Assembly: GCA_965224215.1 (NCBI GenBank)
Contig: CBDCYS010000027.1
Span: forward strand, 10,304 to 74,303
Direction of reading: 5' to 3'
Origin: Bryobacterales bacterium
GTDB taxonomy: Bacteria; Acidobacteriota; Terriglobia; Bryobacterales; UBA6623
DNA: 64,000 nt
Of the stretch, positions 2,018-46,029 are shown one piece after another (position 1 is the stretch's first letter; every line of letters starts with the position of its first letter). The notes under the pieces were generated by a model. It saw only the letters and a program-made list of their open reading frames with translations, was not told where the DNA came from and made no database searches. The translations under genes and the position numbers were made by a program.

Positions 2018-2515
2018 CTCTACGGCGCCGGGCTGCGCTTGGACGAAGCGCTGCGGCTGGAAAGCAGCGACATCGACAGCCAGCGGATGCTGATTCAGGT
2101 TCGCCAAGGCAAAGGACAGAAGCCGCGACAGGTCATGTTCGTGCCCAAGCTTCTCGCACTGCTGCGCATTTACTGGCGCCGCTACCAACCGCAGCTGTTG
2201 CTGTTCCCCGGCCGCATACCCGGCGCGACGTTGCGACCCTCGGGAGTTCGACAAATCTGCCAAGAACTCGCCCGCAAAGCCGGCCTCAACAAAGCGGTGA
2301 GTCCGCACGTGTCGCGGCATTGCTTCGCCACCCATCTGCTGGAGGCCGGGACGGATCTGCGCACGATCCAAGTTCTGCTGGGGCATGCCAGCCTCAAGAC
2401 TACGGCTCGCTACCTGCACGTCTCCGAGCACAGGCTAAAGACAACCACCAGCCCTTTGGAAGATCTGGCGATCCGTGAGATTCTCCACGACGACGGGGAC
2501 GGCCGCCGACGGTGA
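2018..2515 (+). pseudogene. Tyrosine recombinase of an IS91-like element, 5'-truncated
   Basis: [40 protein letters not shown] catalytic motifs are present. Sequence upstream of 2018 does not resemble an integrase. The stop overlaps the transposase start (GTGA). Confidence 0.85.
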
Positions 2516-3717
2516 GACCCCATCGGCTCGAAGTGGCCGATGTGGTTCGCGAACACGGACAGGAGTTCCTCGAGCGTTGCGGGCGCTACGCTTCCCCGCA
2601 ACAACGCAAGGCTCTCCACGACATCGGCGTCTGTCGCACGGCCGCTCTGGGCGGCCATCTCGAGCAGTGCGATTCTTGCTCGCACCACCTCGTTGCCTAC
2701 AACTCGTGTCGCAACCGGCACTGCCCGAAGTGTCAGTCCACGGCCCGCGACCGCTGGCTCGCCGAGCGGGCCGCGGAGTTGCTGCCCGTGCGCTACTGCC
2801 ATGTCGTCTTTACAATTCCTCGACCACTGGCGGCGCTGGATCTGCACAATCAACGGGTCTTCTACCGTTTGCTATTTCGTGCCGTTTCTCAGACACTGCT
2901 GGAGATCGCAGCCGACTCTCGACGCCTCGGCGCACGAATCGGCTTCTTCGCGGTCTTGCATACCTGGAGCCAAAGCTTGCTCTACCATCCCCACATCCAT
3001 TGTGTGGTTCCGGCCGGAGGCATCTCTTTGGATCGCTCACGTTGGATTCGCTGCCGCAGGAAGTTCTTCCTTCCGGTGCGAGTGTTGAGCCGGCTCTTTC
3101 GTGGGAAAATGCTGGCCTTCTTGCGCCAAGCGTTTGCCCAGGGTGAGTTGGGGTTCTTCGGACGCTTGAGCGAACTCGCCGAGGCCGCCCGCTTCCATGC
3201 TTGGCTTGAAAGCTTGAAGAAGAGCGAGTGGGTTGTCTATGCCAAGCCGCCTCTGCGACGGTCCCAGCATGTGCTCAAGTATCTGGCCCGCTACACACAT
3301 CGCGTGGCCATCTCCAACGGGCGGCTGGAGTCGCTGGAAAGAGGTCGCGTTCGCTTCCGCTGGCGCAACGCGAAAAAGAGCAATCGCATCCAGACAATGA
3401 CTCTCGATGCGGTCGAGTTCACCCGGCGCTTCCTGCTGCATGTGTTGCCGCGCGGCTTCGTCAAGATCCGGTATTACGGCTTCCTCGCGAATCGCCATCG
3501 CTCGGCTGAGCTGGCTCGCTGCCGTGAACTGCTGCAGATTTCTGCAACCGCAGCCGACGCGGCGACCATCTTGAGCAGCAAACAACGGCAAGCTGTCGAG
3601 CGCCGTTGTCCCCTCTGCCGCCAAGGTTTCCTGCGCATTGTCGAATGGCTTTCGGTGCTTGAGTTGCACACGCGCCGGCACAAACTCACGCTGCCCGATC
3701 CGATCGATTCTTCATGA
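2512..3717 (+). CDS. IS91-family rolling-circle (Y2/HUH) transposase
   Basis: Zn-binding [16 protein letters not shown] motif [27 protein letters not shown]-terminal CPLC. Confidence 0.95.
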
Positions 3718-4130
3718 AACCCCACCGCGCCTGCCTCGAATCCACGACGATTCCAACGGCCGCCTGGCACCGCTCAATAGTGCTGCGTCCGGACCGTCCT
3801 GCTTGCCTACGTCATCTGAACGCAAAGGTCCAATTCCATGCACTGCACCTGCAAAACCTTTGTTGATTCCTACACCGGCCACACCGCTGTGAGCCCTCTC
3901 ACCGGGTCTCTTGCACACTTCCCAACTATTGAATTCCCATAAGGAATCTCCGAGGCCGGCTTACTGCAACAAACCGTATCAGCAATGCTCCGGCGGGTCG
4001 TTTCCTCGGCCCTCCCCGGACACCCTCTCGCCGGATCACTGCCGATACGGCCCTAAGGTGTTACCACCACCTATCGCAGCAGGGTAGAATTGGACGGAAG
4101 TGATCAGCTGATCCGTGGATGGGTCGCTAA

Positions 4131-40995: not shown

Positions 40996-43900
40996 CTAAC
41001 CCTGCTTCAATACCAACACCACTTCCTCCCCGTCGACGCTGGCCTCGCGCCGCTCTCCGTTTTCGGGAACCTCGCCGGCAGTCGTCAGCGATTTGCAGAG
41101 GGCTTCACTCATGAAATGATCGCGGCTGGCTTCGAGGACTCCCCGCACCCGCTCTGAACCGCTGATCCAAAGCCGAATCCGCTCCGTGTACTCGACGTCA
41201 AGCTCCTTGCGCAAGTTTTGGACCCGGTGCAGCAGCTCACGATACAGCCCCTCGTCGCGCAGTTCATCCGTCAGCTCGCACTGAAGAACCACAACGGTTG
41301 TTTGGTCTCCCGCGGCAGCGTAGTGCTCGGCGGCTTCGACCTGAACTTCGACGTCTTCGGACTCGAGTGCTAGCGGCTCGCCGTCGATCTCGATCGAAGC
41401 CGAGCCCGTGTCAAGCAGTTGCCGCCTCAGCTCTGCCGCGTCCACGGATTGAAAAGCCTTCTTGGCGGCCGGCATCTTCTTGCCCAAGCGCGGCCCGAGT
41501 CGCCGGTAGTTTGGCCTGACGAGATAGCGCACATGCTCCTGGCCCTCGCCGCCGAAGACGACCTCGTGGACATTGAGTTCCTCGGCGATCAGATTGGCGT
41601 AGCCGGCAAGCGCCTTTCCTTGCTGCTCGTTCGGCAAAATGATCTCGGCTCGCGAGAGCGGCTGCCGGACCTTCAACTTGTGGTCGGTCCGCACGCGCAG
41701 CCCCAACGAAACAATGTTGCGGACAGCCGCCATTTCCTGCGACAGCTTGCGGTCGATCAGCGCCTCGTCGCCGGTCTTGTAATCGCAGAGATGAACGCTT
41801 TCGGCCCGCTCGCCGCCGAATGGCCCGCGCACGAGATTCTGGTAAATCTCCTCCGCCATGAAAGGGACGAACGGGGCCGCCAAGTTCGTCACCGTCACGA
41901 TCGCCTCGTAGAGCGTCGCATAGGCGTCTTGCTTGTCGTCGTCGAGCCCGCTTTTCCAAAAGCGCTGCCGGCTGCGGCGCAGATACCAATTCGACAGCGC
42001 GTCCACGAAACCCGATAGCTCGGTCGCGGCTTCATAGGCGAGATAGGAATCCATCAACTCCCTGACCCGGCCCACAAGAATCGCCGCCTCGGAAAGAATC
42101 CAACGGTCAAGCAAGGCTCTCTCGGCCACCGGGCGCCCCTTCGACGTAACCGGATCGAACCCGTCGATGTTGGCGTAGATCGTAAAGAACGAATAGACGT
42201 TTCGCAGCTTGAGAGGAAACTCCTTCTGCAGCGTCCGAACGTTACCGAGCGAGTGCCGGGTCGAGGACCAGGGAGGGTTGGCCGCGAAGAAAAACCAGCG
42301 GAAAGCGTCGGCCCCCGGTGCGGAGCCTGTAGTGCTTTCGACCGTAATTCGCTGGTTGTCGGCCAGTCGCACGACTGCATTCGGTTCTACCCCGAGACCC
42401 TTCGGGTTGCTATCGAGACCGAGCGATTCGCAGTCCCCAGACGACAGAACGGCCACGCGCCGAGGCATCCTCTTACCCTGGCGAACGGTCACGAGAGTGG
42501 CTGCGTCATCCGAGTTCGTGAAAAGCTTCACCTGGACACCGGGGTGCAGGTCCAGCGCCTCGATCTCCTCGCGGCCCAGCAATACCTCGCCGTCCTCGAC
42601 TTTCATCTCCGCTTGCTCGCTGCCGACCACCGCGAACTCCTGTGCTACACGATCGAAGATGGCCTCGGGCGGCGTGAAGTTGCCCTTCGATTTAGACTCC
42701 TTCTTACCCGCGGGATCGGTCACGTGTCCCAGCACAATGCAGGTGCCATAAGGGTGAGGAAACTCGCGTTTCCTTTCGAGCCCGTAGCGCTGTTGGGTCT
42801 CGTCATCAAACACCAATGTCGAAACCATCAGCAGCGAGTAGAACCAGCCCCGGGTCTGATCAATCGCTTCGGTAATAAAATCGGCCGGGAAGGCCTCTTC
42901 GAAGCGCTCTCGCCCCTGGTGCGGAAAGCCTTGCTGCGCGAACGGCATGCACCCGGAGTCGAACCAGCAGTCGATCACGTCAGGAACACGGCGGTAGACG
43001 CCAGGCTCGCCGGGCTCGATCCAGCTCACTGCGTCGATCCAAGGTTTGTGGACCATCAAGTGTTCGGAAAGCTCTGGGGTTTGCTCACGGTCGCGGTGGA
43101 AATGGTCGAATGCATGGGGATTCTTCGCCTCGATCTCGGCCACGGACGCGGGAGCCTGCATCTTGCCCGTTTCGTCGTTGACCCAGATGTTGAGCGGGGT
43201 GCCCCAGTAGCGCTCGCGCGACAGGGCCCAGTCGACGTTGTTGGCCAGAAAATCACCGAAGCGCCCGGTGCCGATATGCTCGGGCAGCCAGCTCACTTTG
43301 TCGTTGTTCTTGATGGCGTCCTGAATACGTTCCGTCGTGCGAACGAACCAGGCTGGACGCGCGTACTGTATCAGCGGATCGTCGTCGGCCCGCCAGCAAA
43401 AGGGGTAATCGTGACGGTAGTTTTCGCGGTGCAGCAGGATGCCCAGCTCTTTCAGTTTCGCGACAATGTGGCGGTCGGCGTCCTTGACCCACATGCCTTC
43501 AAGATCTGGAGTTTCGGCGGTGAATTTGCCTTCCGAAGTCACTGGGCAGAGCAGCGGGATCTCGTCGCCGTTCTTGTATTCCGCGCGCGTCTTGCGGAAA
43601 AGGTCATAGTCGACCTCGCCAAAAGCTGGGGACTCATGGACCAGCCCTGTTCCGGTGTCGAGTTCGACGAAATCGGCGGCCAGGACTGTCCATAGGGCGG
43701 GGTGTCTGCTGCCGTCTTTTCGCTCGACTTCGAGGTCTCGATACTGCTGGTGGAAGTAGTCGAGCGGCGGCTTGTAGCGCCGGCCAAGCAGAGCGCTTCC
43801 CTTTAATTCCTTCTCAACGGAAAGCTCGCGGCCCAGTTTCTTTGCAATCGTTTCGCGCAGCGCCGCCGCCACGATGAGGCGGTGTTCTCCGTCGACGACC

Positions 43901-44649
43901 TGCACGTAGTCGTAGTCTTCGCGCACTGCGACGTACTGGTTCGACGGCAGCGTCCAGGGAGTCGTCGTCCAAATCAGCAGGAAGGTCGAAGGCTCATCCT
44001 CCAGCTCCAGCGCCACGTAGACGGCGGGGTCTTGGACTTCCTTGTAACCGAGTCCCACTTCGCCCGCCGACAGCGCGGTGCCACCCTGTGGCCACCACCA
44101 GACAATCTTGTGGCCTTGATACAGCAAGCCTTTGCGAAACAGCTCGGAGAGCGCCCACCAGACGCTTTCGACATAGCTTTTGTGATAGGTGACGTAGGCG
44201 TCTTCCAAATCGACCCAGAAGCCGACCCGGCTGGTCATTCGCTCCCATTGTTCGGTGTAGCGAAACACCGACTGCATGCATCGCAGAATGAAATCCTTTA
44301 CGCCGTACTCCTCGATGGCGGCCTTGCCGTGGATGCCGAGTTCTTTTTCGACCTCGACCTCGACCGGCAGCCCATGCGTGTCCCAACCCGCTTTGCGGGG
44401 AACGTAGAAACCCCGCATGGTGCGGTAGCGCAGGAAAATGTCCTTGATCACGCGAGTGAGAACGTGGCCGTTGTGAGGCAGACCGTTGGCTGTCGGCGGA
44501 CCTTCGTAGAAGATGAACTTCGGGGCAGCCTTGCGCTGGGCGAGGCTTTTCTCAAAGATCTGGTGCTCTTCCCAAAAGCGTTGAATCGAGGCTTCACTCT
44601 CTGGGAAATTGACGATGGATTGGGCTTTTTGAAACTTCGGCTCACTCAT
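40996..44649 (-). CDS. ileS: Isoleucine--tRNA ligase (type 2-like)
   Basis: FYEGPPTANGLPHNGH, GWDTHGLPVE, WTTTPWTLPSN, GTGLVH, DWALSRERYWGTP, DQTRGWFYSL, KESKSKGN, NWYLRRSR.RFW. Confidence 0.97.
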   Translation of the reverse strand: MSEPKFQKAQSIVNFPESEASIQRFWEEHQIFEKSLAQRKAAPKFIFYEGPPTANGLPHNGHVLTRVIKDIFLRYRTMRGFYVPRKAGWDTHGLPVEVEVEKELGIHGKAAIEEYGVKDFILRCMQSVFRYTEQWERMTSRVGFWVDLEDAYVTYHKSYVESVWWALSELFRKGLLYQGHKIVWWWPQGGTALSAGEVGLGYKEVQDPAVYVALELEDEPSTFLLIWTTTPWTLPSNQYVAVREDYDYVQVVDGEHRLIVAAALRETIAKKLGRELSVEKELKGSALLGRRYKPPLDYFHQQYRDLEVERKDGSRHPALWTVLAADFVELDTGTGLVHESPAFGEVDYDLFRKTRAEYKNGDEIPLLCPVTSEGKFTAETPDLEGMWVKDADRHIVAKLKELGILLHRENYRHDYPFCWRADDDPLIQYARPAWFVRTTERIQDAIKNNDKVSWLPEHIGTGRFGDFLANNVDWALSRERYWGTPLNIWVNDETGKMQAPASVAEIEAKNPHAFDHFHRDREQTPELSEHLMVHKPWIDAVSWIEPGEPGVYRRVPDVIDCWFDSGCMPFAQQGFPHQGRERFEEAFPADFITEAIDQTRGWFYSLLMVSTLVFDDETQQRYGLERKREFPHPYGTCIVLGHVTDPAGKKESKSKGNFTPPEAIFDRVAQEFAVVGSEQAEMKVEDGEVLLGREEIEALDLHPGVQVKLFTNSDDAATLVTVRQGKRMPRRVAVLSSGDCESLGLDSNPKGLGVEPNAVVRLADNQRITVESTTGSAPGADAFRWFFFAANPPWSSTRHSLGNVRTLQKEFPLKLRNVYSFFTIYANIDGFDPVTSKGRPVAERALLDRWILSEAAILVGRVRELMDSYLAYEAATELSGFVDALSNWYLRRSRQRFWKSGLDDDKQDAYATLYEAIVTVTNLAAPFVPFMAEEIYQNLVRGPFGGERAESVHLCDYKTGDEALIDRKLSQEMAAVRNIVSLGLRVRTDHKLKVRQPLSRAEIILPNEQQGKALAGYANLIAEELNVHEVVFGGEGQEHVRYLVRPNYRRLGPRLGKKMPAAKKAFQSVDAAELRRQLLDTGSASIEIDGEPLALESEDVEVQVEAAEHYAAAGDQTTVVVLQCELTDELRDEGLYRELLHRVQNLRKELDVEYTERIRLWISGSERVRGVLEASRDHFMSEALCKSLTTAGEVPENGERREASVDGEEVVLVLKQG

Positions 44650-44828
44650 GTGATTTCAACGCACCTCCGCGGGTGCAAGTCGTTGCTCGATTCTCTTGAA
44701 TCGTGTGGGCGCAGCACATCGTACGCCTGCATTCTCCGGCGCGGCGGAGAATCGGTGACACCGGCAGAATAGTCTTTCGGCACCTTATTTTTCCTGATGC
44801 GCATTTTCCGATAGGCACGCGCGCATGT

Positions 44829-44876
44829 AAAAACAAAAAAGCCACTAGCCGGTTTGTCTTTCCCCCGGCGAGTGGC
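44829..44876 (-). terminator. Intrinsic terminator (attenuator) in the ileS leader
   Basis: Minus strand GCCACTCGCCGG-loop-CCGGCTAGTGGC-TTTTTTGTTTTT. Confidence 0.85.
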
Positions 44877-44899
44877 CTCTGAATCCTTTTCCAGAGCCC

Positions 44900-45073
44900 C
44901 TAACCGGGGCCGCTAATGATAATGCCGATGGGAATTCGGCGTATCCGCGGGCGGGTGATTCCGATGGAAGAGCTCAGACGGGGCCGAGTGCTGAAACGAA
45001 CGGGCGAAGGACGACTGGGGTCAGCCGGTGGCTCGTTGCCGGTCGCGGTGCAATACGATTTCAAGGGTTCCAC
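44900..45073 (-). CDS. Ile-rich leader peptide upstream of ileS (57 aa, not in ORF track)
   Basis: GTG start gives MEPLKSYCTATGNEPPADPSRPSPVRFSTRPRLSSSIGITRPRIRRIPIGIIISGPG*. There are 8 Ile codons in the last 21 and none earlier. The start codon is uncertain. Confidence 0.75.
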   Translation of the reverse strand: MEPLKSYCTATGNEPPADPSRPSPVRFSTRPRLSSSIGITRPRIRRIPIGIIISGPG

Positions 45074-45343
45074 AATTCGCCCCTACCCCTAGAAGTTTAT
45101 CAGTTTCTTCGGGATAATCTCCACGCTAGCTGGGGAGCGGTGAGGGAACGCAGGCGGGACCTCTCGATGCCCTTACTGCTCATACCGTGACCGATACGGG
45201 CGCTTCTTCGCGGATTCCGCACCTGTGGGGATCGATTCCCCATCTCTGAGAAGTTCCTCGACGACCGTCCGCACAACCTCGTGAATGTGCTTTAGAGCTT
45301 CCCCTTCAGTGTGCCCCCACGTCGCCGCTCCCTGCTGCTCGCG

Positions 45344-45838
45344 CTAATCCAGCGTTGCCTGCCGAACCTTCTCGGCTTGCTCTTCTCGAAAAGCCCGCAG
45401 CTTCTGCCGCAACACAGGGTCGCCATTCGCAAGAATGTGGATCGCCATCAGAGCCGCATTCACCGCCCCGGGCTTTCCGATCGCCAGCGTCGCAACGGGA
45501 ATCCCGCCGGGCATCTGAACGGTCGCAAGCAGCGAATCCAGTCCGTTGAGGGCCGCGCTTTGGATCGGGACTCCTAGAACCGGCAGCAGGGTGTGAGCAG
45601 CCACTACGCCCGCCAGGTGGGCAGCACCTCCGGCAGCCGCTATCAGCACCTGAACTCCGCGGGCCTCGGCCGAAGACGCATACTCCGTCGTGATGCCGGG
45701 AGTGCGGTGCGCCGACATAACATTGCATTCATGCGGCACACCGAAACGCGTCAGCATCTCATCGCAATACTTCATCGTTTCCCAATCCGACTTACTTCCC
45801 ATAACGACCCCGACCAGGGGTTTTGATTCATCCGTCAT
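45344..45838 (-). CDS. purE: N5-CAIR mutase
   Basis: [33 protein letters not shown]. Confidence 0.97.
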
Positions 45839-46029
45839 ATTTTTACCCTTTCCTTGAAAGCGACCGGTTCCTCAACGATCCGGGCCAAAACGGCCGTCGG
45901 CTGATCCTTCGTTGCGTTGCTCGCGAGTGATCTTGCGCCGCTCGTGTCGGACCACACCCGGCATCGGATCAGCTGGAATCAGACGGCGCTCTGAAACCGA
46001 CATCGTCGTCGCGTGTCGCGGCTGTGGAC

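Follow-up and report, generated by a model that had tools for sequence, protein, structure and literature searches.

A probable isoleucine-codon leader-peptide attenuator upstream of ileS in Bryobacterales

Known control of ileS and of related operons

In proteobacteria the pheST operon is cited as the classical attenuation of an aminoacyl-tRNA synthetase operon, and in the same survey the synthetase genes of Firmicutes are described as using T-boxes, with classical attenuation used by none of them (PMC1262725). T-box riboswitches are moreover reported in that survey upstream of ileS in both Firmicutes and Actinobacteria, and in Table S0 of Naville & Gautheret the T-boxes account for 40 of the 58 ileS candidates; none of the 76 rows for Solibacter usitatus in their Table S8 is ilvB or ileS. 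For the branched-chain pathway, the ilvB-OMG, ilvB and ilvB-II uORF motifs are described from other phyla (PMC10272879). In Caulobacter crescentus, an "ileS leader CDS" (CCNA_03934) is mentioned as a small translated ORF that ribosome profiling placed upstream of ileS, and it is named as a control (PMC4117421). Our literature search found no description of an Ile-codon leader with a terminator before ileS, nor of an ilvB attenuator in Acidobacteria; related predictions may be listed by Lopatovskaya et al. 2010 (Mol Biol 44:128).

The locus described here lies on the minus strand of a 64,000-nucleotide stretch of DNA from a bacterium of the order Bryobacterales (Acidobacteriota), and this whole stretch is called the window in the following. 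Like the pheM-pheST system of E. coli, it has a synthetase gene following a leader ORF rich in cognate codons and a pair of alternative antiterminator and terminator hairpins, and the homeostatic feedback logic via tRNA charging would be alike. The pheM leader has 14 codons, whereas the leader here has 54-57; unlike pheM-pheST, moreover, the element would read Ile and not Phe, it has its stop codon inside the antiterminator arm, no 1:2 hairpin was found in it, and it occurs in Acidobacteriota with no sequence relationship to the E. coli system. With the ileS T-boxes it shares the regulated gene and the signal, namely tRNA-Ile charging, and in Firmicutes the output is also a choice between terminator and antiterminator; unlike a T-box, however, the sensing here would be carried out by a stalled ribosome and not by direct tRNA binding, and the element has no match to a T-box model. 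The parent family, which is located upstream of ilvB, resembles the enterobacterial ilvGMEDA and ilvBN leaders and the ilvB uORF motifs (as these are presented in PMC10272879) in combining a leader of branched-chain codons with a structured RNA, while the ileS copy differs from the ilv leader attenuators in being without Val and Leu codons and in having no Rfam 15 match. As for the small ORF CCNA_03934 of Caulobacter, it likewise stands upstream of ileS, in another phylum.

The ileS locus and its two alternative hairpins

The features of the locus are collected in Table 1. The identity of ileS is given by TIGR00392 (820 bits, with a cut-off of 621), and it is the single ileS in the 8.6-Mb assembly, the remaining matches being class I paralogues with 25-35% identity. 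The encoded IleRS is also hit by the MupA/MupB models, where its score of about 750 bits does not attain the cut-offs, and its closest relatives outside Bryobacterales are Polyangiaceae or Myxococcota records with 53-58% identity. On the minus strand the gap between purE and ileS amounts to 694 nt, and both the leader frame and the hairpins are situated inside it.

Table 1. Features of the purE-ileS region in the order of the minus strand (positions are those of the window)
Feature	Position	Strand	Description
purE (AIR carboxylase)	45344..45838	-	Pfam AIRC E = 1e-60; same-strand upstream neighbour, outside the element
Extended -10-like motif	45094..45102	-	TGATAAACT (TGnTAAACT); candidate promoter element of the leader transcript
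Shine-Dalgarno-like AGGGG	45080..45084	-	6 nt 5' of GTG 45073; read from the sequence; AGGGA at the same place in G001
Leader ORF	44900..45073	-	57 codons and TAG (44902-44900); start GTG 45073, alternative TTG 45064-45062
Antiterminator hairpin	44863..44909	-	Outer helix CCCCGGU/GCCGGGG; inner helix GGC-UCUGGA/UUCAGAG-GCC; leader stop codon in the 5' arm
Terminator hairpin	44841..44876	-	GCCACUCGCCGG / CCGGCUAGUGGC; 11 pairs, one C.U mismatch, 12-nt loop
U-tract	44829..44840	-	UUUUUUGUUUUU; U6GU5; read from the sequence
Sigma-70-like TTTACA-17-GAAAAT	44803..44831	-	9/12 matches; starts inside the U-tract, directly after the terminator; not conserved in G001
ileS	40996..44649	-	1217-aa isoleucine--tRNA ligase with C-terminal DUF5915; Pfam domains, TIGR00392; regulated gene

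Read from the GTG, the leader frame gives VEPLKSY...IGITRPRIRRIPIGIIISGPG and then the stop, the C-terminal stretch being RIRRIPIGIIISGPG. A minus-strand ORF with eight Ile among its last 21 codons had been claimed by an earlier sequence-only reading of the window, and the translation of 45073-44900 bears this out, as it does the accompanying claim that all three Ile codons are used including one AUA: there are four ATC, three ATT and one ATA, at codons -21, -19, -14 (the ATA, 44944-44942), -11, -9, -7, -6 and -5 relative to the stop, and the run ATT ATC ATT occupies 44923-44915. Set against these eight in the 21 final leader codons, the Ile share of IleRS itself is 3.8%. With the Shine-Dalgarno-like AGGGG in front of it, the frame is a same-strand short ORF having a plausible start and ribosome-binding site, where the start codon may be either the GTG or the TTG. 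Depending on this choice the leader comprises 54-57 codons in the source genome (G000), and it comprises about 36 in the ileS leaders of the genus g4, and the 57-codon leader is indeed unusually long, as had been remarked.

Downstream of the leader, the strong hairpin and the U-tract that the same reading had pointed out are found at 44876-44841 and 44840-44829. In this hairpin 44876-44865 pairs with 44852-44841, and the G+C-rich stem of 11 pairs followed by U6GU5 constitutes an intrinsic terminator between leader and gene, 181 nt upstream of ileS. A simple terminator scan does not list the hairpin of 44876-44841, because the loop of 12 nt exceeds the limit of 8 in the tool. Within the 181-nt spacer between terminator and ileS there is also an 8-bp hairpin at 44731-44752 on the minus strand, ATTCTCCG-CCGCGC-CGGAGAAT, which has no U-tract and is specific to the source genome, being absent in its congener G001.

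The second hairpin was revealed by folding the piece 44960-44815, whose minimum free energy (MFE), taken over its entire length, is -59.8 kcal/mol (z = -3.0, with 1 of 200 shuffles as good). The same MFE structure holds CCCCGGU..GGGGCUCUGGA paired with UUCAGAGGCC..GCCGGGG (44909-44863), its strands being CCCCGGU-UAGG-GGCUCUGGA and UUCAGAG-GCC-ACUC-GCCGGGG, and this is the pairing of the leader 3' end that had been claimed to sequester the 5' arm of the terminator. In fact the 5' arm of the terminator is the 3' arm of the antiterminator, and since both hairpins use 44876-44865 they are mutually exclusive. In nascent RNA where the 3' arm of the terminator is not yet made, the antiterminator is the MFE structure in all seven elements folded. 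For G000 it has -31.1 kcal/mol in such nascent RNA and the terminator segment alone has -24.3 kcal/mol; in six of the seven elements the terminator alone is no more stable than the antiterminator. In equilibrium folding of G000 the two states are nearly iso-energetic, with -39.2 and -38.5 kcal/mol.

A 1:2 (protector or pause) hairpin defines the trp-type four-segment form of attenuator and not the whole class of leader-peptide attenuators. In the folds no upstream leader segment pairs with the CCCCGG arm, so a trp-like 1:2 hairpin was not found; a weak CCCC/GGGG self-hairpin of the antiterminator arm appears in some of the MFE structures only. Because no such hairpin was found, the antiterminator would be the default state without translation, and the design would be one of two hairpins in which termination is caused by translation up to the stop codon.

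Conservation, genomic context and coding signature

When the whole gap was searched as DNA against 40 relatives, only about 85 nt (44913-44828) were conserved outside the genus, with 72-83% identity, and the matching sites are next to ileS in some genomes and elsewhere in others. A covariance model, R1, was then built from an alignment of 14 copies (A1) that includes the source site. It matches in 55 of 77 genomes and all 12 genera of the family f1, and in 106 of 151 genomes of the order Bryobacterales, spread over three families; in the rest of the Acidobacteriota sample it matches in 1 of 150 genomes, and that site also is upstream of an ilvB homologue. The source site itself scores 93.3 bits (E = 1.5e-22) over the full length with the stop codon one base after CCCCGG, a score that is partly by construction since the sequence was one of the 14 build members; the matches in genomes outside the build set are independent of the construction. 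As for known families, a scan of 44000-46000 with Rfam 15 at E up to 10 gave two unrelated weak matches only and no T-box, and eight related ilvB, ileS and cimA loci gave no match at E up to 1, so that membership of any curated ilv leader family is unsupported.

The pairing was counted on a larger alignment of 47 sequences with 45 distinct rows (A5). For the terminator, pairing holds in 88.7% of the cells and compensatory changes occur at 9 of 13 pairs, a result reached by none of 500 shuffles, and when the partners are slid by 1-3 columns the pairing goes down to 17-56%; in the family the stem is always G+C-rich and 11-13 bp long, with at least four U after it. For the antiterminator, 89.6% of the cells are paired and both sides have changed at 4 of 15 pairs; again none of 500 shuffles reaches the covariation score, and sliding by 1-3 columns leaves 33-66% paired. 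The outer helix CCCCGG/CCGGGG is nearly invariant and therefore offers little information for or against. Covariation of the stems, which the sequence-only reading had named as a check together with the Ile runs in relatives, is hence present in both hairpins, and with such conservation of sequence and structure across the order the element is far beyond chance.

The genomic context of the copies was examined at 44 of the 61 sense-strand R1 sites, namely all sites down to 65 bits and six weaker ones. Of these, 38 are located 58-137 nt upstream of ilvB, the large subunit of the biosynthetic acetolactate synthase (TIGR00118, 624 bits), and the other six 34-181 nt upstream of ileS. The ileS copies belong to two genera: in g1 they are those of G000 and G001, with gaps of 181 and 122 nt, and in g4 those of G005, G015, G024 and G063, where no more than 34-42 nt lie between the U-tract and the start of ileS, leaving little room for a separate promoter. 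All six genomes with an ileS copy also carry an ilvB copy. In the source genome, for example, there are exactly two R1 sites, the second of which (G000:C76:22506-22614) is 89 nt upstream of acetolactate synthase and has a leader ending in RLAILRISNTIIIVAVPSPG before a TGA stop. Eight further sites from the other two families were examined: six before ilvB, one before a citramalate synthase, and one apparent false positive, the second R1 match of G117 (E = 5e-4), which was rejected as it lacks a leader motif and neither ilvB nor ileS is close to it. The citramalate synthase copy, a third type, is from the genome G136 of the family f2 (element at L060 2021-2130, gene at 2163-3779; TIGR00977, 701 bits), and its leader of 19 codons, MLILLQGGILISLGISGPA and then the stop, is rich in Leu and Ile. 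The f2 leaders are generally short, with about 20 codons and an ATG start, versus frames of 36-70 codons in f1.

Beyond these copies, the element was present in only 1 of 78 ileS loci of other species of Bryobacterales and of Myxococcota. The sole candidate for an Ile-rich leader in the 78 ileS loci of other genomes, L084, turned out to be AT-rich sequence without a hairpin. In the source genome, valS and leuS have neither a Val- or Leu-rich leader frame nor a hairpin with U-tract within about 750 nt upstream. Within the source genus, the distance from purE to ileS in G002 is about 150 nt, the entire cassette being absent and the last 30 nt or so before the ileS ATG kept, from which it follows that the cassette is dispensable. 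The gap in G000 consists of the G002 block plus the cassette and that in G001 of the cassette only, and such block differences among the three genomes indicate that the gap is an indel hotspot.

The leader frame in these copies bears the marks of a coding sequence. None of the 45 distinct rows lacks a stop codon in the stop column, which reads TGA in 31, TAG in 8 and TAA in 6, and it lies inside the 5' arm of the antiterminator; the 39 columns up to the stop have no gap, and the Gly codon preceding it is GGC, GGT or GGA. In the nine codons before the helix the column entropy has its minimum at codon position 2 and its maximum at position 3, namely 0.68 and 1.04 for the ilvB rows and 0.85 and 1.22 for all rows. 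Between G000 and G001 there is a 1-nt indel directly 5' of the GTG, while the sole indel within the frame is of 6 nt and keeps the frame; the TTG 45064 of G000 is aligned with an ATG in G001, and the four g4 leaders all begin with M(V)HR(K/P)FQP, at a distance of 36 codons from the stop. It was also seen that the f1 leaders nearly always end with (S/G)-P-G-stop and the f2 leaders with x-P-x-stop (A5 columns 28-39), where the conserved Pro codon is part of the CCCC in the antiterminator arm and may be kept by a constraint on the RNA or on the peptide.

Moreover, the codon content follows the gene downstream. In the last 20 codons the six ileS leaders have 4-7 Ile, 0-1 Val and no Leu, and the 38 ilvB leaders have 2-6 Ile, 2-6 Val and 0-3 Leu. 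The Ile runs in relatives are there as well: a run III or INI 5-7 codons before the stop is kept in all six ileS leaders, each of which has exactly one ATA, at codon -14, so the enrichment of the cognate codon is conserved in relatives, all the counts on the leader frame being inflated by kinship as the six ileS leaders come from only two genera. Judging from the stop column, the entropy, the indels, the shared g4 start and the codons that track the gene, the leader is probably translated.

Ribosome position, alternative explanations and origin

A ribosome was assumed, from general knowledge of footprints, to cover about 12 nt downstream of the first base of the A site. The 5' arm of the antiterminator begins 7 nt before the leader stop codon. 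Under the assumed footprint, this arm would be buried by a ribosome that has come to codons -4 to -1 or to the stop, a stall at Ile -6 or Ile -5 would cover two or five of its bases, and with Ile -7 or an earlier one in the A site the arm would be free. A crude equilibrium model, in which the ribosome masks the RNA to A-site +12 and the MFE of the remainder is taken, was applied to 43 elements (G006, which has no T-run, was left out). The dependence on ribosome position that the sequence-only reading had proposed to check by masked folding appears in this model for most of the 43, where the antiterminator gives way to the terminator at codons -7 to -5, and the antiterminator would accordingly exclude the terminator in a position-dependent manner. 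It does not appear in G015, G024 and G089, which fold into the terminator at all ribosome positions and of which the first two are two of the six ileS leaders; and in G000 and G001 it comes early, as the antiterminator forms only with the A site at least 10 codons before the stop and the switch has happened already at -9. Both these genomes have additional Ile codons farther upstream, at -9, -11 and -14.

On the transcript itself the expectation of a promoter upstream of 45073 was answered in part: a promoter scan found there no sigma-70 consensus promoter and no -35 element, and an extended -10-like TGnTAAACT is conserved at 45102-45094, which we infer to be an extended -10 promoter element. 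The motif TGnTA(A/G)A(A/C)T is present in all six ileS leaders, where 139-200 nt separate it from the leader stop and 21-27 nt from the candidate start, both of which lie downstream of it, and also in six of the seven ilvB leaders of the genus g2; the stretch that G000 and G001 have in common starts a little way 5' of the motif. The sigma-70-like TTTACA-17-GAAAAT next to the terminator is possibly a second, constitutive promoter of ileS that would bypass attenuation. As for RNA, three runs labelled as such (one of them by guess) from two studies gave short contigs within 44300-45500, all of them inside 44835-45142, and one DNA run covers 44300-45500 throughout. The RNA contigs are 44835-45066 (232 nt, one mismatch; run X18, RNA by guess), 44870-45038 (169 nt), and 44945-45142 (198 nt; run X20), the last of which comes from a relative with 90-95% identity and reaches upstream of the guessed transcript start. 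Such contigs show neither ends nor strand nor level, and missing RNA contigs at 44300-44834 and 45143-45500 were not counted as low expression; one end of the 232-nt contig coincides with the final U of the first U-run, which hints weakly at a leader RNA that was terminated.

We consider it quite probable that the element is a ribosome-mediated leader-peptide transcription attenuator which couples the transcription of ileS to the supply of charged tRNA-Ile. The transcript would probably start near 45090 and carry the leader ORF with its Ile-rich last third. When charged Ile-tRNA is plentiful, the ribosome would reach the stop codon and cover CCCCGGU, by which the antiterminator would be blocked, the terminator with its U-tract would form, and most transcripts would end at about 44835. 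When it is scarce, either because Ile is lacking or because the amount of IleRS is too small, the ribosome would stall at the Ile codons 7-14 before the stop and leave the 5' arm free; the antiterminator would then form first and take up the 5' arm of the terminator, and RNA polymerase would continue into ileS. Most likely, then, more isoleucyl-tRNA synthetase is made when charged isoleucine tRNA is short. The interpretation as ribosome-mediated attenuation, already put forward by the sequence-only reading, is supported by the comparative tests, in which the stop codon changes its identity but remains a stop, the codons follow the gene, and the g4 copies leave just 34-42 nt between U-tract and ileS. 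Counting against it are the missing sigma-70 consensus ahead of the leader, the ambiguous start codon, a leader far longer than in classical cases, the failure to find a 1:2 hairpin, the masked folds in which two of the six ileS leaders keep to the terminator throughout, the small energy difference between the two states in G000, the partial covering of the arm by a ribosome at Ile -6 or -5, the absence of the cassette from G002, and the sigma-70-like site behind the terminator.

This reading has to be weighed with others, the foremost of which holds that the hairpin and U-tract terminate a separate short transcript, be it an sRNA or the message of a small protein, with ileS using its own downstream promoter and no coupling between them. 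The sigma-70-like site right after the U-tract and the 181-nt spacer of G000 would suit such an arrangement, as would the RNA-library contigs over the leader region only and the fact that G002 does without the cassette; however, that site is not conserved in G001 and in g4 the U-tract is too close to the ileS ATG to leave it much space. In addition, all 44 examined copies are immediately followed, on their own strand, by ilvB or ileS, and their leader codons track this gene, and the conserved alternative hairpin, which takes away the terminator arm, has no role in a plain terminator. We thus regard an independent transcript as unlikely.

Slightly less credit still is given to an attenuator that is switched by an RNA-binding protein, a tRNA or a small molecule, with the open frame being incidental. 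Start codons vary and an ATG is missing from several ilvB leaders, hardly any change is seen in the outer helix or around it, and long open frames arise by chance in GC-rich genomes; yet an incidental frame would hardly agree with a stop column that is always a stop, by any of three codons and at a constant spacing to the helix, with a third codon position that is the most variable, or with conserved NTN codons whose Ile/Val/Leu content shifts with the regulated gene, and neither a T-box nor any other Rfam family matches at the source region (E up to 10) or at the related loci (E up to 1). The least probable of the three, to our judgement a very slim chance, is that the leader is translated and senses Ile but acts through Rho-dependent polarity or through the translation or mRNA stability of ileS. 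Leader peptides without obvious terminators are known in other phyla, as noted in PMC1262725, and typical intrinsic terminators have smaller loops than the 12 nt of this hairpin, which the simple scan overlooked; against this, the G+C-rich stem of 11-13 bp is followed by at least four U and has compensatory changes at 9 of 13 pairs, and the ileS start, 34-181 nt away, is sequestered by neither hairpin. The leader-peptide attenuator is consequently the reading on which the following is based.

From an evolutionary point of view, a maximum likelihood tree of 47 elements over 113 columns puts the six ileS copies into one group with support 99/98, in which g1 and g4 form separate subgroups, and none of them falls with the ilvB copies of its own genus. 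On this sequence comparison the ileS attenuator appears to be a re-tuned duplicate of the order-wide ilvB attenuator without Val and Leu codons, recruited a single time and present today in two genera. Part of this grouping could be due to convergence, given the few columns and the shared selection on the Ile run. Furthermore, the g1 ileS leader (..TRPRIRRIPIGIIISGPG) resembles the g2 ilvB leader (..TPRIAILPISGAIRIIVGVSGPG), both of them having TGATAAACT and the ATA codon. One may speculate, with considerable doubt, about a portable module consisting of the extended -10-like element, the leader, the antiterminator and the terminator, which a single copying event would have carried from a branched-chain operon to ileS, an essential gene, and which would have been re-specified by deleting or replacing Val and Leu codons; it would work without a 1:2 hairpin, and the terminating ribosome would instead be parked by the invariant position of the stop codon within the antiterminator arm, after a conserved Pro at -2, until the terminator has formed.

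Altogether, the element is a conserved and very probably functional Ile-codon leader attenuator of the classical kind. Its mechanism is a textbook one, so the value of the finding is comparative and evolutionary rather than conceptual. The regulatory RNAs of Acidobacteria are almost uncharted and elements of this sort are unannotated in the phylum; here an order-wide attenuator family without a match in Rfam 15 would have a clear sensed signal. It would also offer a natural example of how the specificity of an attenuator is rewired by a few codons, with Ile/Val/Leu before ilvB, Ile/Leu before citramalate synthase and Ile alone before ileS, and it would place ileS in these bacteria under ribosome-mediated rather than T-box control.
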